A DNA stretch of 64,000 bases from an uncultured Phycisphaerales bacterium. GTDB taxonomy: Bacteria > Planctomycetota > Phycisphaerae > Tepidisphaerales > Tepidisphaeraceae. The notes below the pieces were generated by a model. It made no database searches. It was not told where the DNA came from and saw only the letters and a list, made by a program, of their open reading frames with translations. Shown here piece after piece: positions 1 through 24,238 of the stretch (positions within the stretch are counted from its first letter, which is position 1; each line of letters begins with the position of its first letter). The stretch lies in contig CAVWVQ010000003.1 of the NCBI GenBank assembly GCA_963758525.1, positions 2,752,001-2,816,000 of the forward strand, read 5' to 3'. The translations under genes and the position numbers were made by a program.

Positions 1-367
1 GCATCCACCAGCGGTCGCCGGCGAGATATTGCTCGACTTCGGACTCTTCGATCGGATTGAGCAACTGCGGCAGGATGCCCGTGACGCGATCGGCTTTCTC
101 GGTGTGCTGGTACGGCGTCCCGTCTTTGCCGGGCGTGTAGCCTTTGGCGGTCTTCTCCTTCACCAGCTTGTCGTAGATCCTCTTGGCCTCGTCGAAGCCC
201 ACGGGCAACTCAGTCTTCGTGCCCGTGGTCATGGTCGAGCCCCGCCGGCCGTAAGAGTAGGTCACGATGAAGCCAGAACCGGACGGCTCGATCGCGGCGG
301 AATAGACTTTGTCGCTGGATCCCTCGCGGTAATAGAGCGTGATTTGCTCTGCTTGTGTTTCTGTCAT
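1..367 (-). CDS. WGR-domain protein, probably WGR plus ATP-dependent ligase-like domain (runs off the window; absent from the ORF track)
   Basis: Manual translation from the ATG at 367 (AAGGAG upstream): MTETQAEQITLYYREGSSDKVYSAAIEPSGSGFIVTYSYGRRGSTMTTGTKT...EAKRIYDKLVKEKTAKGY, then ILPQLLNPIEE...RWWM. YGRRG and K.AKGY are WGR hallmarks. Confidence 0.8.
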   Translation of the reverse strand, partial: MTETQAEQITLYYREGSSDKVYSAAIEPSGSGFIVTYSYGRRGSTMTTGTKTELPVGFDEAKRIYDKLVKEKTAKGYTPGKDGTPYQHTEKADRVTGILPQLLNPIEESEVEQYLAGDRWWM

Positions 368-601: not shown

Positions 602-1036
602 ATGACTCACAGCACATTTGACCCCACCGGCGACCCTGAACGCAGCGGCTCGACTATGCCGCCGCTGGCAACGCCGGGAATCGAAATCTCAGAAGAAAAC
701 GAAGGCAGGCTGCTGATCGTCAAGCTGATCGGGAAGCTGCATAAGGACGACTACCGTCACTTCCTGCCCGTGGTGCAAAAGGCCATCGGGCGCTATGGCA
801 AGGTTCGCATGCTGGTGCAGATGCTCGACTTCCACGGCTGGGACGCCGGTGCATTGTGGGAAGACATCAAATTCGACGTGAAGCACTTTAATGACATCGA
901 GCGACTGGCGATGGTGGGCGAGCGGACTTGGGAAAAATGGATGGTGATCTGCTGCAAGCCGTTCACCACCGCGAAAATGCGGTATTTCCCGGTCGAAGAG
1001 CTAGCCGAAGCGCGGACGTGGATCATGGCAGCGTAA
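602..1036 (+). CDS. STAS/SEC14 (SpoIIAA-like) domain protein
   Basis: GKLHKDDY...GKVRMLVQMLDFHGWDAGALWEDIKFDVKHFNDIERLAMVG...KPFTTAKMRYF...ARTWI; start may be the ATG at 656. Confidence 0.85.
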   Translation: MTHSTFDPTGDPERSGSTMPPLATPGIEISEENEGRLLIVKLIGKLHKDDYRHFLPVVQKAIGRYGKVRMLVQMLDFHGWDAGALWEDIKFDVKHFNDIERLAMVGERTWEKWMVICCKPFTTAKMRYFPVEELAEARTWIMAA

Positions 1037-1057: not shown

Positions 1058-1747
1058 TTATGCCGCGGAAAGCTCCGCCGATAGCAGGTTGATAGTCACG
1101 TCGCGATCGACGGGCAAGCCCCGCAGCCACCGGGCAAACTGGCCGACCATCAGGCCCGCACAGATCGATGCCGTGTACAGCGTGCTCTTGGCCGTACACG
1201 ATCCGGCATACGCCTCTTCGGCACCAAACAGCGTAGTGGCGTAGTAGTAATCACCGCCCGGCTGCCCGCTGGCCAGCACCCGGAGCACTTCGGCGGACAT
1301 TCTCCCATCTGCGAAGAAGTGGAGATGCTCTCTGGTCGATTCCCAAATGAGCTTTCGCGTCACAATGGAATCGACGCAGCAGAAGAGCGCCAACCGCACC
1401 CCGTTCTGGCGAATCCATTCCAGCCGACGGGCCGATGAGCGCCGGAAGGGCTCTGCCTGACAGACCAGTGTAATCTCCGGGTAGATGCAGCGGCAGAGCC
1501 GGCCGGTGGCCTCGACCTTGGGCTGGTCCAGATCCTGGGGCCAATACCCCTGGGGAGCCAGATTCTCGACACCAACGGTGTCGTGATCGATCAGATCCAT
1601 CACCGGCACGCCCGTCGCCGCCAGCTGCATCGCCACCTGCCGGCCCACCGCCCCCGCACCGACCACCACGGCATGGACCTTCGCCAGATTGTCAGGCGGG
1701 ATCAACTCCCGCTGGCGGATATCCCGGTCGGGATGACTGGTGCTCAT
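1058..1747 (-). CDS. ThiF/E1-like adenylyltransferase (ubiquitin-like activating enzyme)
   Basis: [44 protein letters not shown], and a candidate catalytic Cys in [12 protein letters not shown]-coupled to the upstream gene. Confidence 0.9.
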
Positions 1748-2561
1748 CGTTCCTCCCGGTCGGTGATCTCGAAGTAGCTGGCATAGCCGTCGTCCATCGC
1801 CAGCTCATCGTGCCGGGCATAAATGTCATCTTCCTGGAACAGGTGGCTGGTGCGGGATTGACGATGGGAGGGCCGCAGATCGACCTCGTCCTCGAAGTAG
1901 CTGGAGGGCGAGGCGTCATGGATGTTGGTGCCGTATTCATCCATCCACTTCTCGGTCACGGCGCTCAATTCAGCCCCATTGTCAATGAGGATCTGGGGCC
2001 AGGTTTCCCAGTCGACCCGCACGGGCAGTGAGACCGATCCGCCGGGACCGACGTTGAACGTCAGCCGTGCGAATGTCTGGTGGGTCCGGCTGACGATGAG
2101 CATGATCGCCCAGTCACATTTCCCGAAGACGCGCTGAAAGGTCTCCTCATCCACGGAACTGGGCAGGGGGCTCTCACCGGGGTGTGTGTGCGCCAGATCC
2201 TGGCAAACCGGGCGGGGGTGAGGCCGCGATCGATGCAGTCATCGAAGTAATCCGCCACTGCCGTGTCATCGAACGCCACGGTGACCGGCGTGCAGGTCTG
2301 CTTCACTGTCTGGAAATTTTCGACGTAGAGCGGCTGCTTCTCAGCGCTAATGGCGAAGCCGCCGACTTCCGTGTCGCCGGCGTGGAGGAAGAATAGGAAC
2401 TTGAGCCAGGCCAGCGGCGAGAAGGTCACTGCCGCGGGCTCCTCACGCCGCCTGTGCATCGGAAACGCCAGCGGTGCCGGCTCCGGCTTCTCCATCAGTC
2501 GTGCCGCCCGCAGGCCCGACTGGTTGGGGGTCGGAAATATCTCGGAAATGGGAATGTGCAT
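1744..2561 (-). CDS. JAB/MPN (JAMM) metallo-isopeptidase, split by a one-base frameshift near 2193
   Basis: 5' frame: [23 protein letters not shown]...ARIW. Restoring one G (TGG GCG) continues as [24 protein letters not shown]...WAIMLIVS, giving the E...HxH...S..D JAMM motif. Confidence 0.85.
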
Positions 2562-3549
2562 GGGAGGTCTCCGTTTGGGGTTGCGGTTGTTCTGGAGCGG
2601 GATCGTGAACGGGATCGTCCTCGGTCTCTTCCGCTTCTTCTTCGTTGGCTTCCTCTCTCTTCTTGTCGTCGAGTTCTTTGCACTTGGGGCACAGCCGTTC
2701 GCCGTCGTCATTGCTGCCCGCGCAGCCGAGGCAGATGGATGCATCACATCGATCGCACGATCGAATGCAGTTGTCGCAGTACTCTTGATCGCAGTGGTTG
2801 CAGCAGTACGCTCCGTCGCTGGATGTCGACCTGCCGCAATCCGAGCACGGTTGGCCGTCCCAATCGCCCAGTGCCACGTAGGGGGAGGCGCGGTTGTAGG
2901 TGTGGAGAACGCGGTTCACGAGCTGAAACGCATCGCCGATCCGGCCTTCGGCCAGAGCGTAAGAGATCGGACCCCTGGCATCGCCGGCGCAGAGGCGTTC
3001 GCCCCGGACGTGTGGGTGTGTGCAGGTGTTATCGCTGGAAGCAGGATTGGGATCTTTGGCGAAAATTGTGAATGCCGATGCGTCTCTCCGCTGAGAGAAA
3101 ACATCAAAATGCAGTTGGATGGCAAAGCGGCCCAGGCAGACGTCTTCCAGCGTTATTTCATCCGTCGTAACATCGATGCGGCCCTCTTTGGGAAGGATCT
3201 CTACCTCGCTGAATTCGTCTGTCAGGTACCGGATTTCAGCGAGGATGTCGGCGACGCCGGGAACGTCGGTGGCAGTGGGATCGACTGTTCCTGGAGGGCG
3301 GGTGGTTCTGGAGGCGGAATTTATCTGAGTGATATGCCATTGAAGCCGGATAGACAGGAGCTCGGCGCTGTGCGTCCATCCGTGTGACATAGCCGTGCGG
3401 TACAGCCGCCAGCACCGTTCCATCGTCCGCTGCTGGTCCAGCAGCAAAGAGAGCGAAGTCATCCAATCAGGCGATTCGCCACGGTTGGCGCGGGTGAGAA
3501 TGCGGTGCAGTCGAAGGGCGGCCCAGAGGGTGAGGGATTTCTTCTTCAT
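2443..3549 (-). CDS. Prokaryotic E2/UBC-like protein with N-terminal helical region, Cys-rich zinc-binding tail and acidic C-terminus
   Basis: HPHVRGERLC (2989-3018) matches the E2 HPN...xC active-site pattern, followed by six CxxC pairs (2680-2847); lies between the Ubl and JAB genes. Confidence 0.7.
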   Translation of the reverse strand: MKKKSLTLWAALRLHRILTRANRGESPDWMTSLSLLLDQQRTMERCWRLYRTAMSHGWTHSAELLSIRLQWHITQINSASRTTRPPGTVDPTATDVPGVADILAEIRYLTDEFSEVEILPKEGRIDVTTDEITLEDVCLGRFAIQLHFDVFSQRRDASAFTIFAKDPNPASSDNTCTHPHVRGERLCAGDARGPISYALAEGRIGDAFQLVNRVLHTYNRASPYVALGDWDGQPCSDCGRSTSSDGAYCCNHCDQEYCDNCIRSCDRCDASICLGCAGSNDDGERLCPKCKELDDKKREEANEEEAEETEDDPVHDPAPEQPQPQTETSHAHSHFRDISDPQPVGPAGGTTDGEAGAGTAGVSDAQAA

Positions 3550-3642
3550 GGCGAACAGTCCTCCGGGAATGACAGAGCCCGCCTGAACGGAAAGATTCTC
3601 GTTCAGGCGGGCTGGAGAACGCATCTACGCACAGCCGGTGAC

Positions 3643-3861
3643 TCAGGCACCTTCGATCTTGAGCGGCGTCATGCTGATGCGGGAACCGGCCACCAGAACC
3701 TGATCGGCCGCGGCGGGAAGGCGATCGACCCGGATCAGATAGTCGGTGGGATTGGCGTCGGGCATCTTCTGCTGGAACAGTTTCTTGACGGTGGTGCCTT
3801 CCTCCACCTCGATGTGGTCGGCGAACCCGCCGCCTTCGTTGTTGATGTACAAAATCTTCAT
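3643..3861 (-). CDS. Ubiquitin-like (beta-grasp, ThiS/MoaD-like) protein ending KIEGA
   Basis: 72 aa; IEVEEGTTVKKLF...YLIRVDR...DQVLVAGSRISMTPLKIEGA; AAGGAG RBS. Confidence 0.85.
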   Translation of the reverse strand: MKILYINNEGGGFADHIEVEEGTTVKKLFQQKMPDANPTDYLIRVDRLPAAADQVLVAGSRISMTPLKIEGA

Positions 3862-5063: not shown

Positions 5064-5405
5064 TCAGGCTTGTTTGGCTTCGCGAACCGCAATCGCGTCG
5101 AAATGCTGTTTGAGCGCCGCCTGAATGTTTCGGGCCTCAGAGCCCCGCCCGATCGTCTCGTGATATTCGACGCCGAGGGCAACGGCGAGAAACCGAAGCA
5201 TCTGAAGGCCGTACACACCGGTAAGCTCTTTCACGGGTTGGCCATTAACGAAGAGAGTGCCCTTGGGCGAGCCGTCCGACTTGTACTTCCTGGTCATGTG
5301 CTCCACGACTGCCGCCGGCAGCCCGGCATCGGTGAAAGCTTCAGGCTTGAGGATCGAATGACCGTTACAAAGTGATGCCGCCCGGAGATCACCTCCGGGC
5401 GGCAC
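5064..5405 (-). CDS. Hypothetical protein (start uncertain)
   Basis: Protein-like C-terminal part of ORF 5064..5687: LCNGHSILKPEAF...GVYGLQMLRFLAVALGVEY...GRGSEAR; co-oriented with neighbours. Confidence 0.6.
   Translation of the reverse strand: MPPGGDLRAASLCNGHSILKPEAFTDAGLPAAVVEHMTRKYKSDGSPKGTLFVNGQPVKELTGVYGLQMLRFLAVALGVEYHETIGRGSEARNIQAALKQHFDAIAVREAKQA
5376..5404. repeat. Perfect 12-bp stem hairpin TGCCGCCCGGAG-atcac-CTCCGGGCGGCA
   Basis: Read directly from the sequence. Confidence 0.8.
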
Positions 5406-5491
5406 TCCTTGACCAGGCGCACGATCTGATGGATTTGTGGGCGTGAACTCACAGTGTGTCTCCGGTGTGAGCGTTTGGGAGGGAGGGACCG

Positions 5492-5719
5492 TCAAGCCAC
5501 AACGGCGCTGACCGCAGGGGACGGCTGGTGGAGACAGGCGGCGTAGAGCGCGCCGACTTTCTCGCCCATGCTCGACAGCGAACGGTTCACGGCGGCGAGC
5601 TGGCGGCGCTGATACACGTGGCGGCGTTGCGGACTCCGGCGACGGTGACCGGGATCGACGTTGTTTCCCAGCATGGCAAGATCGCACGAGGACAGACGTG
5701 AAGCGGGAATAATGGACAT
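5492..5719 (-). CDS. Small hypothetical protein, paralog of 4436..4660
   Basis: AAGGAG RBS; shared motif LSSCDLAMLGNN...LAAVNRSLSSM. Confidence 0.7.
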   Translation of the reverse strand: MSIIPASRLSSCDLAMLGNNVDPGHRRRSPQRRHVYQRRQLAAVNRSLSSMGEKVGALYAACLHQPSPAVSAVVA

Positions 5720-5807
5720 GAAATCTCCTTGTTGCGCAGAGTCGCGCAGCTTGAAAGTGGTGACACAGAGCGAACGCGGTATCCCGGCACGCGCCGGGAA
5801 CTACCGC

Positions 5808-6176
5808 TCAGGTGGTGAGATCTGAGTCAGGGGTGATCGGCGGCTCGGGAAGGGCGGCGGGTGGGGCTGATGGATCGAGCTGCTCCAGGCGTTCACCCAT
5901 CTGGGCTTCCCAGAGCTCGAAATGGCTCTTTCTCAGCGAGACGATGCACACCATCGTGAGAAGCTCGATGGCTTTCTGAACGCGCTGGGTTTTCTTGTGC
6001 GAGCCGCCAAGGGCCAGGAGTTTCTGGTACAGGTCTGAATATGACTCCATGACGAAGCTGGCCAGATCAGGCTCGACCTTTTCCAGGTGGGACATGGCGG
6101 GCGTGATCCCCTGGCGCTGCAGCTCCAACATTGTCTGGAGGATGGTGCGGGAATGCACCTGTTGATCAGATGCCAT
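5808..6176 (-). CDS. Hypothetical helical protein
   Basis: ATG at 6176 with GGAG upstream; has an in-window paralog at 4782..5043. Confidence 0.7.
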   Translation of the reverse strand: MASDQQVHSRTILQTMLELQRQGITPAMSHLEKVEPDLASFVMESYSDLYQKLLALGGSHKKTQRVQKAIELLTMVCIVSLRKSHFELWEAQMGERLEQLDPSAPPAALPEPPITPDSDLTT

Positions 6177-6544
6177 AAGTAAATGCTCCGGTTGAAATTC
6201 TCGTTGGCGGGCGGAAAGTGCTGGCCACTGCCCGTGTAACGGGCTACCCAACGACGTGGAACGTAAACGAGAGGACAATCGCCACGCGATCACCGCGAAG
6301 AGGAGGCACCCCAACATCGCGATGGCGGATCGCAAGCACTGGACGATTGCCGGCGTGCCTACGGTAACGGCGGCTTGGCGAGCTACAACTTCATCAGGCT
6401 AAAAGAGAGAAATACCAACACGATCCCCGCCGTCGTGTCGAATCAGCAGAGTCACGCAATGATGTCGCGAGGGAAAGCAAACATTTATTCGCGCCCGCGG
6501 TCGCGTTAGCATCTTCTTCTCTTCGAAATACACGATGGTGACAC

Positions 6545-7774
6545 ATGCAAGACGACACTTGGCTTAGCGCTCAATTTCCCTTTCCGCTGGTTCGCACGAA
6601 CATGGAAGGTGTCTACACGACACCAGCGCCGCCCGACCATCTGAACTTCGAGACGGCAAGTTCCGCTGCTGCAGCCCAGTATGGACTGCTGTTGCATCGT
6701 CCAAAGCGTGGCGATAGTGCTGCCGTGATATCCGCGTGGAAGCGGATCACTGAAAAGGGGCTGCGAATTCTCGCACCAATTCTGGAGCCACTGCCTGAGC
6801 CAGTGCGCCGTCCCAGGGGATCGCCGGGACGATGGCCGAATGGACCACAAGCACTGAGCACGAACTGGTGTGGGTGCGTGCTGGAGGGAGCGGGTAATTG
6901 GAGCAGCGTGGTCGGAACGTTCCGCCTGCCGTACTTGAACGCTCCATACGGTGTTCAGGCAAGCGAGTGTGCTGGCCTCTCGGCGTGGGTAGGCTTGGAT
7001 GGATGGAAGGCCGCGCCGTTGGAGCTGCTTCAAACAATTATGAACTTCAACTTGGACGCGAGTACCAATCCGCCCTCAGCGTTCTTCAATTATCCGACGT
7101 GGCAGTGGTGGATACCTGATCCGAACGATCCGAATGCGTCAAGTTACTTCGGGGGTGGCACCGTGATGAATGCGCCGGCGATGAAATCCGGAGACCTTGT
7201 CCAATTGTCCTGCGCGTATGCGACCGGTCTGGACGGATCACCCTGGGGTCATGTCTCTTTCCTGTTCTACAACGATCAGAGCAATGGAAGTCCGGTCCTG
7301 ATGAATTTCATGTTTCCCGGACCGCCGACGGTGGCAGGGCAAGGCGGGTCGATAGAGTGGATCATGGAGAACGAAGCGGCTACGAACAATCAGTCCGACA
7401 CGATCGTCCCCGTCTTCTCGGCAACCCCGAATTCGATTACTCCAATCACGTTCACTCAAGCGGCGGGTTCCAGTCAGTCGGGGAGTGTCATTGGCAATCC
7501 TTTGGACGGATTTACCGTCCTGTGGGAGGACAGCGCCGGGCAGGCGAGCAACGTCGCGGCGGTGTCCATCGCGCCGCAAGAGGTCTCCATTCTTTACAAA
7601 GGCGAAATTCCGCCGCCGGTCGACTGCGCCGAACTGGTGCAAAGTATCCAGGTAGTATTGACTACCAGTCTTCGCCTAACCGGGGCGCAGTGGGCACAAG
7701 CAAAACAACAGCTTCTCAACTGCCGGAGCGAGGGGCGGATCACTGAAGCGCAGTACCAGACCCTTGATGGGTGA
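6545..7774 (+). CDS. G1 family glutamic endopeptidase (eqolisin-like)
   Basis: STNWCG, SAWVGLDG, LLQT (catalytic Gln region), EWIME (catalytic Glu); propeptide-like N-terminus. Confidence 0.85.
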   Translation: MQDDTWLSAQFPFPLVRTNMEGVYTTPAPPDHLNFETASSAAAAQYGLLLHRPKRGDSAAVISAWKRITEKGLRILAPILEPLPEPVRRPRGSPGRWPNGPQALSTNWCGCVLEGAGNWSSVVGTFRLPYLNAPYGVQASECAGLSAWVGLDGWKAAPLELLQTIMNFNLDASTNPPSAFFNYPTWQWWIPDPNDPNASSYFGGGTVMNAPAMKSGDLVQLSCAYATGLDGSPWGHVSFLFYNDQSNGSPVLMNFMFPGPPTVAGQGGSIEWIMENEAATNNQSDTIVPVFSATPNSITPITFTQAAGSSQSGSVIGNPLDGFTVLWEDSAGQASNVAAVSIAPQEVSILYKGEIPPPVDCAELVQSIQVVLTTSLRLTGAQWAQAKQQLLNCRSEGRITEAQYQTLDG

Positions 7775-7947
7775 GATAGCTCGGTACTCGACATCGGGGT
7801 CGAACGAAAGCTTGCCAGAGCCGTGAGTGACGCGGCACGTATGTGATGAGCACATGGTCCGGTGCTCTTATTCGTTTTCTTGGCTGCAAATTTAGGACAT
7901 GGCAAGCGCGACGAACCGGCGACACAATCCTGTGGCAAAGGGCGATG

Positions 7948-8553
7948 TCATCGCCGCGTTGAGATATCGCCGCGATCCCAAGCGATCAATTCCTCGATCG
8001 CCGTCATCGCGTTACGCAGAGCCGACCGTGTCATCAGCGCCATCACGGCCTCGGGCAATGCGTTGAAATCGGCGAGGTTGGTGTGCTGCTCCGCGATTGT
8101 ACCCTTAACGGCCCAAAGTAATTCGCCCAGAGCCATCCAGGATCCAGCCCGCTGAGCCGGTGAACTGATCTTTCCAGCGCACACCACGTAGACGCGCTCG
8201 CTGGAACTTTGTTTGACCGCCTCGCAACAGGCCCGATCCATCGGCGTGTCGTTGTAGTTCACTTCGCTGCCGTCCGACGGCACGCATTCGATGAACATCC
8301 TCGGCTCGTGAAGTCCGACCAGACCAGGCTTCGGGTCGATGAGCAGCACACAGCTGGCGTTGTCTTCGATTGCGGTGATCAGATGGGGAAGCCGGAAGTT
8401 GATTGAGACATCGCTCATCGTTTCGAGGTCCTGTTCTCGTGGCAGAACTTCATGTGGTGTGACGGGGAGGTGGAGCAGCATGGCCGTATCCACCAGGGGT
8501 TTGATCTCCGTCAGCCACTTGCTGGCGATCTCGCGGAGTGCGTCAAAGATCAT
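7948..8553 (-). CDS. Hypothetical protein
   Basis: 201-aa ORF with AGGA RBS, overlapping the end of the upstream nuclease gene. Confidence 0.65.
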   Translation of the reverse strand: MIFDALREIASKWLTEIKPLVDTAMLLHLPVTPHEVLPREQDLETMSDVSINFRLPHLITAIEDNASCVLLIDPKPGLVGLHEPRMFIECVPSDGSEVNYNDTPMDRACCEAVKQSSSERVYVVCAGKISSPAQRAGSWMALGELLWAVKGTIAEQHTNLADFNALPEAVMALMTRSALRNAMTAIEELIAWDRGDISTRR

Positions 8554-9478
8554 GGGTGTTCCTTTCTTCCGTGTTCTTACCCTCTTGTTTCCCTGAGTGC
8601 CCGGCGAAGATCGGGCAGCGGGAACGAAACGGACAAGTCACGCAGTTCTGTGGCGACGGACTGGGGTAGAAATTGCCGCTCTGGATTGCCGCCCAGACCT
8701 GGGCGATGCCATCCCGCATGACATCGATCCGCTGCTCCTCTGCGGCGAGCGGCAGAATCTGCACGCGGGGAACCTTGTGCTTGGTGAGCACCGCGAAATG
8801 CAGCTTGATCGGCAGTCCCATGGAACGGGACATCTGCGCCAGCGTCTGACCGTACAGCACGAGCTGATCGCCCGACTCCTGTGCCTTCTGTTCGGTCCAG
8901 GAACTGCGGGATGTCTTAAAGTCAATGCAATGCAGCCAGCCGTCGGTATGCGTTAGCAAATCTACCTTGGTCAGCACATCAGGGAAACTTGCATCGAGCG
9001 TGACGGTGAGTGTTTCTTCGATGCCGAGAATCGTGCTCTTGGGGCTGGCGAGCGGTGAAGCCAGAAACGCCGTCAGCATCCGGCTGGCCAGTTCGTGAAG
9101 TGTGTCGGTGTTCTCGTTCTTGTTGAACCGCACGGGAACGGGCTTGCCCGACGTCGCGGGCCGCTTGCGCCAAGCATCGTGATACGCCGATAGCAATGCT
9201 TCAAGCGTCACGGCCAGACCCTCAAGTCTGGCCCGGAAATAAAGCTCCAGAGCCGCATGGATGCTGCCACCGAAGATCAAGCTGCTGGGAACGAAATCAG
9301 CCGGAGCATTCTCGACGTATTGAAAGGCGAACTTCCGAGGGCAGGCTCGAAAAAAGTAAAGCTGTGAGTGGGACAAGTACGGCCGCCCCGTGATCCGCTG
9401 GGCCAGCTGGTTGGGCGCACGGCTGCGCCGGTTCCCGGTGCGCGCAGCGTGAGCGGGCATGACCGTCTGCGTGGTCAT
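8543..9478 (-). CDS. PD-(D/E)XK nuclease family protein (RecB/AddB-like, four-Cys cluster)
   Basis: LSHSQL...CPRKFAFQY, GGSIHAALE, KVDL...IDFKTS, QLVLY, CVTCPFRSRC; AAGGAGG RBS. Confidence 0.9.
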   Translation of the reverse strand: MTTQTVMPAHAARTGNRRSRAPNQLAQRITGRPYLSHSQLYFFRACPRKFAFQYVENAPADFVPSSLIFGGSIHAALELYFRARLEGLAVTLEALLSAYHDAWRKRPATSGKPVPVRFNKNENTDTLHELASRMLTAFLASPLASPKSTILGIEETLTVTLDASFPDVLTKVDLLTHTDGWLHCIDFKTSRSSWTEQKAQESGDQLVLYGQTLAQMSRSMGLPIKLHFAVLTKHKVPRVQILPLAAEEQRIDVMRDGIAQVWAAIQSGNFYPSPSPQNCVTCPFRSRCPIFAGHSGKQEGKNTEERNTHDL

Positions 9479-9515
9479 GAGAACCTCCTTTCTTTTAGGT
9501 GTCGCGTGACGGCAA

Positions 9516-9537
9516 ATCTAAAAACCGGTTTTTAGAT
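9516..9537. promoter_or_regulatory. Perfect 22-bp AT-rich palindrome ATCTAAAAACCGGTTTTTAGAT, candidate operator
   Basis: Exact self-complement, intergenic, about 38 bp upstream of the nuclease start; the regulatory role is inferred. Confidence 0.55.
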
Positions 9538-9557
9538 GTAGCGAAATGTGGCCAGTC

Positions 9558-10022
9558 TCAGCGTCCTCGGTCTGCTGAGGTGAAGCACTTGAGGTGGTCG
9601 ATGAGATCACTGGCCTGCCGGACGCTCAGGTCGTCCAGCGCCACGCCGACGATCTGGTCGGATTCGTGTGCCGGATCAATGTTGGCGCGGCGGGCGATGG
9701 CGAAGATGGCCTTGCGCTGGCTTTCGGTCATGCCGCCGTGGTGACCATTGCCGTTACCGTTGCCGCCGTTGCGGTTGCTGGGAGCGCCGTTGCGCGAAGG
9801 GTATGGGCGCGACTGACGGGTGTCGTTGCGCGGGGCTCGACCCGCCTGTTGCTCAAGAGCCTGCTGGGCCTGCGCGTACAGGTTGCCGATCTCCTGCTGG
9901 AGTTCGTCGGGACGAGCCAGCAGCGATTGATCCAGCTCCGCGGTGACGTTGATCGAGACGCCGGTCGATTGGAAATTCCGGCTGGCTTTCCGGCTCAAGC
10001 CGACATTGACGGATAAGGGCAC
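9558..10022 (-). CDS. Hypothetical protein (phage/ICE-type)
   Basis: GTG start with AAGGAG; VNVGLSRK...GVSINVTAELD N-terminus, N/G-rich linker, C-terminal MTESQRKAIFAIARR...LSVRQASDLIDHLK helical module. Confidence 0.7.
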   Translation of the reverse strand: MPLSVNVGLSRKASRNFQSTGVSINVTAELDQSLLARPDELQQEIGNLYAQAQQALEQQAGRAPRNDTRQSRPYPSRNGAPSNRNGGNGNGNGHHGGMTESQRKAIFAIARRANIDPAHESDQIVGVALDDLSVRQASDLIDHLKCFTSADRGR

Positions 10023-10290
10023 GGGAATCTCCTTTGCCCGAGAGGGCGGTTGTGGGTGTGAAGAAGGGCGGATGGCTATCCATCTGCACCTCACAGGTAT
10101 TGACGCAAAACGGGCTGCAATTTAGCTCAGAGGTTCCGATCTCAGACTCGGCGTCGAGTCGAGACTTAGAACGCCGTCGATCATGGAATGAATGCGGGGA
10201 AAAGAGCAGAAGGTAGTCGGCAATATCGCCGGACGACATGTTCGACGGATCAAGCGAACAGCGTTGCTGGAAATTGATGAGTCGGATACA

Positions 10291-11970: not shown

Positions 11971-12723
11971 GTGATCACAGTGACGGCTGATTCTCTCCTG
12001 CCCAAGTACGCGGACGCAATCAGAGAGCTGCCTGCCGGTCCCCTTTCTTTAGCGATGTTGGCGGAGCGCTTCACGCTGTATCACGAAGTCAGGGTTCGGA
12101 TCGTTTACGCGCCATTCGATTTTGTGAATACGTCGGCGCGCATTGCCATCGTCGGCATCACGCCAGGCCTTTCTCAGGCGCAAATCGCCTTCGAGTCAGT
12201 CAGAGCGGCGCTGGTCGGCGGCAAGTCCCTCGAACAAGCTGCTAAAGAAGCGAAGACAGCCGCCAGCTTCGCCGGTCCGATGCGCTCGAATCTCTGTTCC
12301 ATGCTCGACGCCATCGGACTGCCGGCAGTTCTGGGGATTCCGAACTCCGTGGCGCTGTTCGATCAATCATCCGATCTGCTTCACTGCACGTCGGTCATCC
12401 GTTACCCGGTATTCGTGAATGCTGAGAACTACGGCGGGTCCAATCCATATGCCTGGAAACATCCGGCGCTGCTGGCGTACATCAAGGATGTACTGGCCGC
12501 GGAACTGCAAGCTGTCACCGGGTCATTGATCGTGCCGTTGGGGAAGGCTGCGGAGCGCGCAGTCAGGTATCTGGTCTGGAGTCACCGGCTCGACGAGCGA
12601 CGGTGTCTGATCGGCTTGCCTCATCCTTCCGGCGGGAATGGGCATCGAGTCGGGCAGTTCAACCAGCAGCGCAAGGCCCTGACGAGGCAGTTGAACGGGT
12701 GGAGCGAGCTGGTCGAGGACTGA
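11971..12723 (+). CDS. Uracil-DNA glycosylase superfamily protein
   Basis: IAIVGITPG (motif A-like), SFAG, IVPLGK, LPHPSGGN (motif B-like). Confidence 0.8.
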   Translation: MITVTADSLLPKYADAIRELPAGPLSLAMLAERFTLYHEVRVRIVYAPFDFVNTSARIAIVGITPGLSQAQIAFESVRAALVGGKSLEQAAKEAKTAASFAGPMRSNLCSMLDAIGLPAVLGIPNSVALFDQSSDLLHCTSVIRYPVFVNAENYGGSNPYAWKHPALLAYIKDVLAAELQAVTGSLIVPLGKAAERAVRYLVWSHRLDERRCLIGLPHPSGGNGHRVGQFNQQRKALTRQLNGWSELVED

Positions 12724-18100: not shown

Positions 18101-19101
18101 TCAAACCTTTGGCCCTTCCACCGGCTTGGCAATTGCCTCGCGCATGCTGGTGTCGGCCTGCACATTCTTGAGCTTGTAATAATCCATCACGCCTAGGTTC
18201 CCATTGCGGAGCGCCTCGGCGATCGCCTTGGGGATTTCCGCCTCGGCCAGCACCACCGCGGCCCGGTTGGCCGCGACATGCGCGATGTTTTCCTGCTCCT
18301 GCGCAATGGCCATCGCGCGGCGCTGCTCGGCCTCGGCCTGGAAGCGGCGCTTGTCAGACTCGGCCCGGTCGGCGGCAAGCTTCGCGCCAGGTTCTCTCCC
18401 ACGTCGATATCCGCGATGTCGATGGAGAGAATCTCGAATGCGGTGTTGGCGTCGAGCCCTTTGCTCAAGACGGCTTTGGAGATCGAGTCGGGGTTTTCCA
18501 GGACGTGCTTGTAATCGATGGCAGACCCGATCGCGTTCACGATTCCTTCGCCCACGCGCACGATGACGGTTTCCTCGGTCGCCCCGCCCACGAGGCTCTT
18601 GATGTTGGTTCGGACGGTGACCCGGGCACGCACCTTCAGTTGGATTCCGTCCTTCGCGACGCCGTCGATCGTCGTGCGGCCAAGTGTGGTGTTGGGGACG
18701 TCGATCACCTTCGGATTCACGCTGGTCTGCACCGCATCGAGGATGTCGCGCCCCGCCAGATCGATGGCGGTGGCAATCTGCCAGGGAAGCTCGATCTGCG
18801 CCTTGTTGGCCGCGATCATCGCGTTGATGACGCGCTGCACATCGCCGCCGGCAAGCACGTGCGATTCCATCTCGCGGTTGCTGACGTTGATGCCGGCGCG
18901 GCTGGCCTGAATGCGGGCGTTGACGATCGCCAGCGCATTCACTTTCCGCACGCGCATCCCCATCAGATCAAAAAGGCTGATGTGCGATCCGCTGGCAAAC
19001 GCGCGAATGTACAGCCCAAGAAACTGGGCGATGAATGCGAAGACGATCAGCAGAAAAATAAGAAAGACGACAAGCAGACCGACGCCGATAGGGTTACTCA
19101 T
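18101..19101 (-). CDS. floA: Flotillin-like protein FloA (UPF0365), one-base frameshift near 18,388
   Basis: [59 protein letters not shown]; one added G restores LGAKL...[10 protein letters not shown]...GNLGVMDYY. Confidence 0.92.
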
Positions 19102-19223
19102 ATGATTCCCTCCGATGGGAAGCGACACGGGACTTTGTTCATGCCCCGCTTATTCTATGAAGGCGGCGGGGGAAAGCGAAAGGCGTGCGGGATGCACGAC
19201 CGTCTCCGCGTCTCTGCGCACTG

Positions 19224-21378: not shown

Positions 21379-22640
21379 ATGCGGACCTGGCTATGCATCC
21401 CGCTGATCTTCCTTTCCAGTGCGCTGTTGGCCCGCGCCGCCGCAATTGCGGAGAATCCCGCCGTTCCCGAGTCGATGGGAGTCAACATTCACTTCACCGA
21501 TCCGCGGCCGGGGGAAATGGAGATGCTCGCCGCGGCCGGATTCAAGTGGGTCCGCATGGATCTGGGCTGGAACGGCACCGAGCGAACGAAAGGCAACTAC
21601 GATTTCTCCGCCTATGACCGGCTGCTCGCGGCCCTGGATGCAAAACAGATGCACGCGATGCTCATCCTGGATTATTCCAACAGGCTCTACGACGAAGGCC
21701 TGTCCCCTTTTACCGATGACGGCCGTGCCGCGTTCGCGCGATGGGCCGCGGCCGCGGTGCAGCATTTCAAGGGTCGGGGCGTTCTCTGGGAAATGTACAA
21801 CGAGCCGAATGGCGGGTTCTGGAAACCCAAGGCCGACGCGGGCGCTTACTGGCAACTTGCGCTGACCGTCGGCAAGGCGCTTGCGCAGCGGCGCCGGACG
21901 AAACGTATATCGGCCCGGCGATGGCCGGCATGGAGTTCACCTACCTGCAGAAGTGCTTCGATGCCGGCGTGCTTCAGTACTTCTCGGCCGTCACCGTGCA
22001 TCCGTACAGGCAGGAAGAGCCCGAAACTGTCGCTAAGGACTACGCAAAGCTGCGGGCGATGATCGCGCAAGCTGCGCCCGCGGGAAAGAAAATTCCCGTG
22101 ATCAGCGGCGAATGGGGATATTCGGAACGCTTCCGCAATCAAAACGAAGAAAATCAGGGAAAGACGCTGGCACGCGAGTTCCTGACGAATCTCGCCGAAG
22201 GAATTCCCCTCTCAATCTGGTATGACTGGCACGATGACGGAGATGATCCGAAAAACGCTGAGCATCGTTTCGGCATCGTGCACCATGCATTCCTCAAAGA
22301 CGGTCTGACGCCATACGCGCCAAAGCCGGCATATCTGGCGGCCAAAACGCTCGGCACGACGTTCGCGGGATATCGTTTCGAAAAGCGATTGCCGGTCGGC
22401 GGTCCGAACGACTGCGTGCTGCTCTTCAATAACGGCAACGCCCATGCAATCGCGGCCTGGTCAACTTCGCATGAACAGCACGATGTCACGATTCCGATCC
22501 AGGGAGCGGTTCACCGAACCAGTCACGTGGGCGATGATCTGGGCGACAAGGTCGCCGCTGCCGACGGACTTCACATCGTGCTGACTGATGCTCCGGTGTA
22601 TCTCACGTCTGACGAGCCGAGGTCATTCCAACCGCTTTGA
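21379..22640 (+). CDS. Secreted clan GH-A glycoside hydrolase (GH5/GH39-like), frameshift near 21,883
   Basis: Signal peptide; GFKWVRMDLGW, WEMYNEPN (acid/base), VHPY, ISGEWG (nucleophile). Confidence 0.85.
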
Positions 22641-22855
22641 TTCGCGCGTTATTGACCCGCCAGGGAGAGGTGCATTCGCGCACGAACAACTTGATCATTT
22701 TCGAAGCATAAATGAGGTAATTACGTATCACAGCCGTCTCGGCTGTGGCCCGCAAGCACAGCCGAGACGGCTGTGCTGGAACCGCCAGCCATTCCCGCGG
22801 TGCGACGATTCCCTGGGTTGAAGACCGCTCTTATCGGTCCCGCCGACTCACCCGG

Positions 22856-24238
22856 ATGGCAGGAGCAAGCGGCGCGGCCGATGGTGCCGATACGAACATC
22901 ATGATTTCGATGTGGGAACGAGCGCGGGGCCTGACGACCCTGCTGAGTCATTCAAAGCTGCAGCAACGGCACCTCCGCGAGTTTCAGAACCGGCGGCTGC
23001 GCACTCTGGTGCGACACGCATACGACAACGTTCCCTTCTACCGCACGCTGTACGACCAGCATGGCGTCGATCCCCGCGCTATTCGCGGCGTTGACGACAT
23101 CGAACGGCTGCCTGTCACCACCAAGCGAATGTTCCAGGCGCTCCCGATGGAGCAACGTCTGGCGCGGGACGAACCAGGACCGGCTGATTCTGCGCAAAAC
23201 CAGCGGCTCGTCAGGGCAACCGTTCGTATTCGCGCGCTCGCTGATCGAAGAGCGATTTCTGGGATGGGTCCGGCTTCGCGCGATGCTGGAGATGGGCACC
23301 CGGCTGACCTACCGCCATGCCAGCGTCCTGATCAACCACAAACGGCAGAAGTCGGACAAGCAGTTGCCGCTGGGAATTCTCAAAGCCTTCGGGCTGATGC
23401 GGGGAGCGCCGATCGATTGCTTTCAGGAGCCGCGCGCCATCCTCGACCAGTTGGTGCGTGTTGATCCTGACGTGATCATTGGGTTTCCCGGAGTATTGTC
23501 GCGCGTCGCGACGCTGGCGCAGGCGCCGGCAAGTCGACTCTCAAGCCGCGCCTGATCTTCTGCGGCGGTGAAACCGTCACTCCGATGATGCGCAAGCAGA
23601 TCGAGCAGGGCTTTGGCGCTCCGCTGCGCGACACCTATGGGTGCGTCGAATTTAATCTGATTGCATCGCAATGCTGCGGCAACGGCGTCATGCACACCTG
23701 CGACCACGGAGTCATCAGTGAAGTGCTCAGCGGCGAAAAGCCGACCCCGTTTGGCGAGCGCGGGGAGATGGTGCTGACCGGACTTCACTCGTTTGCGATG
23801 CCCCTCATTCGCTACCGCATCGGCGACGTGGTCACGCGCGGCACGGCCGGCTGCGCGTGCGGCAGCCCCTTCGCGACGATCAGCGCGATCCAGGGCCGGA
23901 TGGTCGATCATTTCCAGCTTCCCGACGGCCGGCTCCTGCATCCGTGGAAGATCATCATCAGCGTCTTCGATGACCCGAAAATTGTGAGCGAGGTGCAGTT
24001 GCTTCAGGAGACCAGGTCGCGCGTCGTGATGCGGATCGTTCCGCAGCGGCCCATCTCTGAGAGCGAAATGAGCCACATTCGCGGCGGCGCCTCCCGACTG
24101 CTCGGCCCTGATGTGACCCTCGACATTCAACTGGTGGCTCGAATTCAGCAGGAAGCCACCGGCAAGTTCCGCACCTCCCGCTCGCTGGTGGAATCACAGT
24201 ATGACAACTTCAATGCCGCGGCGGCGGGCGCCGCGTAG
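22856..24238 (+). CDS. Phenylacetate-CoA ligase family (PaaK/CapK-like) protein, frameshifts near 23,167 and 23,535
   Basis: HAYDNVPFYR, LPVTTK, TSGSSGQP, CGGE, DTYGCVE, MPLIRYRIGD, QGR, GKFR; start uncertain. Confidence 0.85.

Follow-up and report, generated by a model that had tools for sequence, protein, structure and literature searches.

The window analysed here is a 64,000-nucleotide stretch of DNA from an uncultured Phycisphaerales bacterium (contig CAVWVQ010000003.1, positions 2,752,001 to 2,816,000 of the forward strand). At positions 1058..3861 it carries a cassette of four minus-strand genes that we read as a candidate ubiquitin-like conjugation system, comprising a small ubiquitin-like protein (Ubl), an E2-like protein, a JAB/JAMM metalloprotease and a ThiF-type E1 enzyme. 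The four open reading frames (ORFs) sit exactly at the positions given in the original prediction, made from the sequence alone. The gene for the Ubl precursor (3643..3861, 72 aa) is followed after a gap of 93 nt by that for the E2 fusion protein (2443..3549, 368 aa). The JAB gene (1744..2561, about 272 codons) starts at 2561, inside the region coding for the acidic tail of the E2, and overlaps the 3′ end of the E2 gene by 119 nt, while its junction with the E1 gene (1058..1747, 229 aa) is an ATGA overlap; the earlier description of four adjacent genes, the last three overlapping, is thereby borne out. A Shine-Dalgarno-like sequence precedes each of the four genes; between 400 and 6000 of the window, no sigma-70 promoter was found and terminators were not in excess. 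The closest named relatives are Tepidisphaeraceae (Planctomycetota) genomes, and, compared with the closest genome locus (L031), all cassette genes are under purifying selection, with ratios of nonsynonymous to synonymous substitution rates (dN/dS) of 0.10–0.32; the value for the Cys-rich segment of the E2 was saturated (one pair, synonymous sites near saturation). We assembled 34 bacterial loci, comprising 20 of the 25 strong E2 matches outside this genome and 14 GTDB loci, some of them near-copies from one genome. The order Ubl-E2-JAB-E1 is kept in 31 of these 34 planctomycete loci (two others end at contig edges and one has the E2 only) and on 28 of 33 viral contigs, which, together with the dN/dS values, argues that the cassette is not a chance arrangement.

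The Ubl is predicted to adopt a beta-grasp fold and, as first read, ORF 3861-3643 encodes 72 aa ending in KIEGA, that is, K-I-x-G71 followed by Ala72. Both G71 and A72 are invariant in a 33-row alignment. Of 36 bacterial Ubls, none ends in Gly: in 35 the K-I-x-G motif precedes Ala and up to 42 more residues, and the remaining one lacks the motif. Since the Gly is hidden by an Ala-containing tail in nearly all of them, maturation by a protease must be needed, as for BilA in the part of PMC10557695 used here, and the proposal that the JAB removes the terminal Ala gains support. The Ubl of this locus matched no family in Pfam, NCBIfam or PADLOC scans; its homologues showed weak matches to ThiS and SAMP2 (E 0.004–0.02), and the Ubl alignment matched MoaD at E 0.64.

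The E2 fusion protein consists of an N-terminal helical hairpin (residues 6-82, 3304..3534), a UBC/E2 domain (residues 96-232, 2854..3264), a predicted zinc array of 12 Cys (Cys235-Cys290, 2680..2847) and an acidic disordered tail; a full-length AlphaFold model (pLDDT 83.6) resolves the hairpin, an alpha/beta domain, a Cys-rich module and the tail. The hairpin and the zinc array had no place in the original prediction and are added here. No family in Pfam, NCBIfam, PADLOC or PHROG matched the E2 above cut-off, and sequence searches with its alignment found nothing in PDB at E≤10 and chance-level Pfam matches only. Whole-protein fold searches were uninformative because the helical hairpin dominated them, whereas residues 96-232 modelled alone (pLDDT 91) gave an informative result: in a fold search against 48,161 representatives (VIA), all 50 top rows were E2, UEV or RWD domains. 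The best structural match was UBE2S (Z 8.0, root-mean-square deviation 3.4, 122 aligned residues), ranking above BubB (Z 5.6) and Cap2 (Z 5.5), and Foldseek agreed weakly (best E 0.013, probability 0.99). The comparison with UBC folds that had been proposed for 2443..3549 therefore returned a predicted UBC fold. The E2-type HPHV...LC motif noted at the outset is present as HPHVRGERLC, with H178-P-H180 and Cys187 (codon 2991-2989). This Cys, on whose conservation the E2 assignment leaned, is invariant together with H178 and H180 in an alignment of 47 homologues; HPH-x6-C is invariant in 34 of 34 aligned homologues, and a motif search found Cys187 in 188 of 196 database homologues.

The hairpin is the most variable folded part of the protein, with a mean identity of 24%. 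The 12 Cys of the array are invariant in a 28-row alignment and form six CxxC pairs, ten being the commonest number in the database homologues that have the motif (106 of 192); in viral copies the number ranges from 0 to 21. The Cys-rich module matched Pfam Siva below cut-off (E 0.001), the whole E2 model gave weak Foldseek matches to LIM and FYVE domains (E 0.1–0.7), and the array had no Pfam match to a RING family. Given that the cassette has no E3 gene, the zinc array and the hairpin are the best candidates for target choice. A specificity module would be expected to vary, in line with the range of 0–21 pairs and with a phage locus (L107:120-4479) that encodes two Ubls and three E2 paralogues with differing zinc arrays, one E2 having a canonical HPN-x7-C. 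The family is large: 2,617 clusters (50% identity) were found at E≤0.001 and 793 at 1e-30, and the Atlas holds an unnamed cluster of 2,546 members and a viral cluster of 55. A conserved T-E-x-x-H-E in the E2 tails (window 2570-2555) probably reflects a constraint at the DNA level, because the ribosome-binding site and the ATG of the JAB gene, which overlaps the E2 gene, fall on it.

The C-terminal half of the JAB protein shows weak matches to Prok-JAB, Cap3 and the PADLOC JAB model. Its JAMM motif, E ... HxH-x7-S-x2-D, is conserved in intact homologues (HTHPG..PS..D), in keeping with the earlier identification of a JAMM protease once a single base is repaired. In this assembly, a single-base break at 2191-2192 splits the motif, so that its E, within GDTEVGG, is read in a different frame from the rest. 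Were the break real, the tag could not mature and the cassette would be a dead remnant in an element that has lost its integrase. The break does fall within the catalytic motif, and the nearest match to a tyrosine integrase is about 136 kb away. Elsewhere, the genome contains a truncated lone E2 remnant (C3:4759713-4760306, about 60% identical, without Ubl, JAB or E1) and an AAA fragment, and a 2,477-base Logan contig, possibly derived from the same reads, encodes the same truncated C-terminal piece. We nonetheless regard decay as very improbable. The extra base is present at 2192 in a contig of run X2 (90% identical) and a piece of run X5 (98%), both single contigs at depth 2; runs X1, X2 and X5 represent relatives or fragments and are not shown to be this strain. 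We predicted 327 genes over 400 kb of another genome of the genus; 94 of them had well-covered orthologues in this assembly, of which 18 proved frameshifted, at 0.15 per kb. Discounting one shadow ORF leaves 17 distinct breaks. Fifteen of these lie within 3 nt of GCGC, compared with a background of 14.7% of positions (binomial p 3e-11), and the JAB break itself sits in TGGCGCAC. Motif-linked basecalling errors are known from methylated sites in long reads. As relatives carry the extra base and the other breaks cluster at GCGC, the frameshift is most likely an assembly error of this type; dN/dS is 0.14 in both JAB halves. The JAB as a true pseudogene is thus largely rejected, and in the cell the cassette of this genome is probably whole. 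Most single-base 'pseudogenes' of the assembly are errors linked to GCGC and are not to be taken for decay, and other reports of 'broken genes' in the genome may likewise be artefacts. Three further ORFs in the window look split by frameshifts, at 18193-19128, 21379-22640 and 22745-24238; we take them to be a flotillin-like gene, a glycoside hydrolase and an acyl-CoA-ligase-like gene.

The E1 is a single domain of 229 aa that matches Pfam ThiF (2e-19, 70 bits against a cut-off of 28), and 33 homologues align across 219 profile positions. G30/G32/G35, D54, K77, D126 and C184 are invariant (33/33), so that the GxGxxG, Asp, Lys and Mg-binding Asp of the adenylation domain are all present. The original prediction of a ThiF/E1 enzyme with a spare Cys in GSCTAKST stands as to the family and the residue, Cys184 (codon 1198-1196); 'spare' does not describe it, as it is the only invariant Cys of the protein. 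In a quick tree with long branches and no root test, which gives no direction of transfer, the cassette E1s separate from two host ThiF proteins (SH-aLRT 99), and 27 of 32 viral rows cluster together, apart from the bacterial ones (SH-aLRT 92). This clustering of the viral rows suggests long residence of the E1 family in phages.

A single ThiF-like domain and a Ubl whose only family matches are ThiS, SAMP2 and MoaD could also belong to a sulfur relay, in which a JAB-trimmed carrier would be adenylated by the E1 and converted to a thiocarboxylate, the E2-like protein playing a passive part. We consider this the least probable of the explanations weighed here, as an E2 with an invariant Cys accompanies the Ubl at nearly every locus and the three-domain Ubls found on phages do not fit sulfur carriers. 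We scanned 125 of 127 flanking ORFs from 30 loci against NCBIfam (E≤1e-20; two very long ORFs were left out). No sulfur-cofactor family (sulfurtransferase, ThiG, MoaE or cysteine synthase) was found among these 125 proteins or the conserved neighbour clusters, extending to the planctomycete neighbourhoods the initial observation that no thiamine, molybdopterin or cysteine biosynthesis genes lie nearby. The host has its own ThiG and MoaE more than 1 Mb from the cassette and ThiF-family genes elsewhere, from which, as noted, the cassette E1s stand apart.

Within the phylum, the E2 has a patchy, multicopy distribution: it was detected in 18 of 401 genomes (four weakly), with up to six matches in one genome; among relatives, 7 of 61 genomes had it, and neither of the two other same-genus genomes did. 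Recurrent neighbours of the cassette are an AAA ATPase, DUF2997, a gene we take to be DUF1257-like (no Pfam match), the conserved families c7, c12 and c9, DUF4230, DUF6573, a WGR-domain ligase and tyrosine integrases. The latter occur at eight bacterial loci, adjoining tRNA-Ser at four of them. For 17 of 25 bacterial E2 matches, the c7 gene of the backbone was found no more than 20 kb away, and the AAA gene is near the cassette in 15 of 34 loci. In this genome the cassette is co-oriented with the surrounding element backbone genes. On one side is the minus-strand start of the WGR-domain ATP-dependent ligase gene (1..367), which runs past the window edge and has a paralogue in a sister element (C3:4.824 Mb); between it and the E1 gene lies a plus-strand SpoIIAA-like gene (602..1036) that is not conserved next to the cassette at other loci. 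On the other side is the minus-strand upstream backbone (5064..10094), made of small conserved ORFs, a PD-(D/E)XK nuclease (9478-8543) and an ORF at 10094-9558, and interrupted by a plus-strand peptidase A4 gene. This segment is collinear with, and 53–91% identical to, the sister element at about C3:4,786,000-4,836,400 (L069-L071), which has a tRNA-Glu, an integrase, an excisionase, a Prim-Pol, the shared backbone and a three-integrase insertion, and carries as cargo a BREX/Pgl-type cluster, alongside GmrSD and HNH genes. No tRNA was detected in the window or the preceding 60 kb. Neither terminase (PF03237) nor coupling protein (PF02534) was found in the 91%-complete genome, these being the two families searched for. 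We therefore infer an element that is neither conjugative nor a phage: the host region looks like the backbone of an integrative, non-conjugative, tRNA-integrating element, and the former label, phage/ICE-like, was loose.

Several other genes in or beside the element (L068, C3:2732001-2752000, and window positions 6545-7774 and 11971-12723) appear to be cargo: a CLC channel, a reverse-transcriptase fragment, a HATPase, a NucA/NuiA-like nuclease-inhibitor pair, a peptidase A4 and a UDG-like gene, with Ku just beyond. A 5.5-kb direct duplication, 99.2% identical, is present at C3:2690862-2696353 and 2710727-2716209, 20 kb apart.

The cassette is also carried by phages. The E1 alignment identified 33 IMG/VR contigs, several of them near-duplicates, where an earlier scan with the E2 alignment had found one locus; the E2 had no match among INPHARED phages or PLSDB plasmids. 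The 28 contigs with all four genes in order include complete phages of 160–180 kb, and a JAB gene is present at all 33 E1 loci, consistent with processing of the BilA/BilC kind. Direct terminal repeats were found on eight contigs and a terminase match on 12. Viral variants (L107, L112-L115, L117) include tandem three-domain Ubls, E2s of 670–800 aa and a second, divergent ThiF gene upstream. These copies strengthen the initial idea of a mobile-element protein-tagging system.

The AAA ATPase is encoded in 16 of the viral records, within 8 kb of the cassette in 13 of the 33 loci, and a group of phages of about 165 kb keeps the two side by side. An hhalign comparison shows the bacterial and phage AAA proteins to be homologous (probability 100), and phrog_20456 is common to the DUF1257-like genes of both. 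One could thus picture a tag-and-extract machine, in which the Ubl marks the element's own proteins for a Ycf46-like AAA module (AAA, c7, c12, DUF2997 and DUF1257-like), much as ubiquitin works with Cdc48. Such a dedicated partnership is unlikely: 17 of the 33 viral records lack any match to the AAA ATPase, roughly 11 kb separate the AAA gene from the cassette in this genome, and phage c7-like proteins match bacterial c7 weakly (hhalign probability 2, E 0.02). In addition, 6 of 17 genomes with the module and 18 of 36 loci with c7 have no cassette, and 2 of 13 genomes with the cassette have no c7. Module and cassette are linked, though not inseparable.

By analogy with Bil and Bub biochemistry, the JAB would cut the tag after Gly71, exposing the Gly; the E1, probably a homodimer like ThiF, would adenylate Gly71 with ATP and then form a thioester through Cys184; and the tag would pass to Cys187 of the E2 and finally to a target lysine through an isopeptide bond. 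We consider this thioester-relay chemistry likely. The JAB may also reverse the tagging. The fused zinc array would likely pick the protein to be tagged. More speculatively, it might stand in for an E3; the targets might be host proteins, such as defence proteins, or proteins of the element; and tagged proteins might be handed to the co-travelling Ycf46-like AAA ATPase. As to its role, we lean towards a tagging pathway in the manner of ubiquitin that serves the mobile elements and phages carrying it.

Several observations weigh against this interpretation. The cassette is dispensable for the element, as half of the c7 loci and the sister element of the same genome do without it; split bacterial copies occur (L032, L036, L037, L043, L054, L063); and over half of the viral records have no AAA match. 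The fold scores of the E2 domain are middling, albeit uniform, and the searches gave ranges without a residue-level superposition of Cys187. An NLxRQ arginine, which has an ATP-binding role, and zinc-binding CxxC pairs are typical of ThiF, MoeB and E1 proteins; the arginine is absent from all 61 E1 rows that have the motif (three viral rows lack a motif match), and the E1 alignment contains no such CxxC pairs. The lack of both is the chief anomaly of the E1, and, as it also has no CYS domain, its catalysis must be non-canonical; the invariant R8, R11, R131, R149 and R156 might compensate for the missing arginine. Defence systems against competitors are found on phages as well, BREX is present in the sister element, and PADLOC defence genes (Gabija, Wadjet, Dpd, type III restriction-modification, Cas1 or SoFic) lie within 6 kb of the cassette at 8 of 30 bacterial loci.

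These last points favour a Bil-like defence, in which the same chemistry would tag structural proteins of incoming phages and the cassette would be anti-competitor or superinfection-exclusion cargo. Its gene order is identical to that of BilABCD (PMC10557695), and Bil tags the central tail fibre of phages, as stated in the part of 10.1101/2023.09.04.556158 used; optional presence in the element and a variable zinc array would also suit an arms race. Conversely, the cassette lies co-oriented in a run of backbone genes and not among the cargo, which is where BREX sits in the sister element; 22 of the 30 loci have no PADLOC match at E≤1e-15 (a mad3 match was an ABC transporter); the phages of about 165 kb hold the cassette beside the AAA gene; and no CapH/CapP- or WYL-named family appeared in the flanking scans, at thresholds at which small regulators could be missed. 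We see defence as a minority possibility and think it more probable that the cassette serves the invader, given its position in the backbone and its presence on phages. A more specific form of that preferred reading, which we put forward only tentatively, is an offensive ubiquitination system common to planctomycete integrative elements and the large-phage group, tagging and removing host proteins such as defence factors. Its parts would be a minimal E1, an E2 whose built-in zinc array acts as an expandable E3, a JAB that both matures the tag and reverses tagging, and an AAA unfoldase resembling Cdc48, in parallel with the use of ubiquitin ligases by eukaryotic viruses. Because the family is large, has an E2 without a Pfam model and is carried by both phages and elements, it offers a natural test of whether prokaryotic invaders turn ubiquitin-like tagging on their hosts, and fusion of an expandable zinc array to an E2 would provide a simple model for the origin of E3-type specificity.

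A literature search found no description of this cassette family, which may be listed in Burroughs 2011, Ledvina 2023 or their supplements. Known systems were compared through parts of PMC1779556, PMC10557695, PMC11601603, 10.1101/2023.09.04.556158, PMC7159879, PMC7824862 and PMC11601596; the part of PMC7824862 covered makes no mention of JAB, ThiF or Ubl. In these parts, CBASS Cap2, Bil and Bub are the characterised bacterial Ubl pathways and are presented as host defences. Type II CBASS does not fit, since the E1 and E2 are separate here, without a Cap2 fusion, and no nucleotidyltransferase is among the conserved neighbours. Prokaryotic tri-ligase operons (PMC7159879, in the part used) likewise combine an HPN-like E2 motif with JAB, E1 and Ubl, and related systems are reported from planctomycetes; they have a separate RING gene, whereas the cassette has an array of CxxC repeats fused to its E2, without a RING match. 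PRTRC systems (Iyer class 6D; TIGR03736, TIGR03738), according to the relevant part of PMC1779556, also bring together a Ubl, a JAB, a single-domain ThiF E1 and an E2 on mobile DNA, but in the 6D E2 the classical His is missing and another follows the Cys, and the 6D JAB has a JAB-N domain and an alpha-helical companion protein. The cassette E1 scored 23 bits against a TIGR03736 cut-off of 145, the Ubl, E2 and JAB halves had no PRTRC match, and TIGR03738 was absent from five of five cassette-bearing genomes (the control was positive in 1 of 14).

Bub operons (class 6E) share bacterial Ubl conjugation with JAB maturation (Type I), but, from the portion of PMC11601596 used, have Tyr/Ser oxyesters, fused genes and a DUF6527 protease, whereas the cassette has a Cys on both enzymes and unfused genes; neither a DUF6527 gene nor any fifth core gene is conserved at the cassette loci. 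In the fold search with the cassette E2 domain, BubB scored lower than eukaryotic E2s. The closest parallel is BilABCD Types I and II (Type II being CEHH, or Iyer class 6C), which, in the parts of PMC10557695 and 10.1101/2023.09.04.556158 used, has the same order of four separate genes, no E3 gene, a Ubl Gly hidden by Ala and a tail, and a Cys on both E1 and E2. It differs in that BilD is a large IAD-AAD-CYS E1 with a zinc site, in contrast to one 229-aa ThiF domain with its Cys in a short loop, and in that BilB has a His after the Cys (CEHH in Type II) and an extended loop, whereas the cassette E2 has HPH before the Cys, no conserved His after it, and the additional hairpin and zinc array. 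The cassette probably works like Bil but, by its E1 architecture and E2 motif, falls outside Bil, as it does outside Bub and PRTRC; and where Bil sits in defence islands, the cassette resides in element backbones and on phages.

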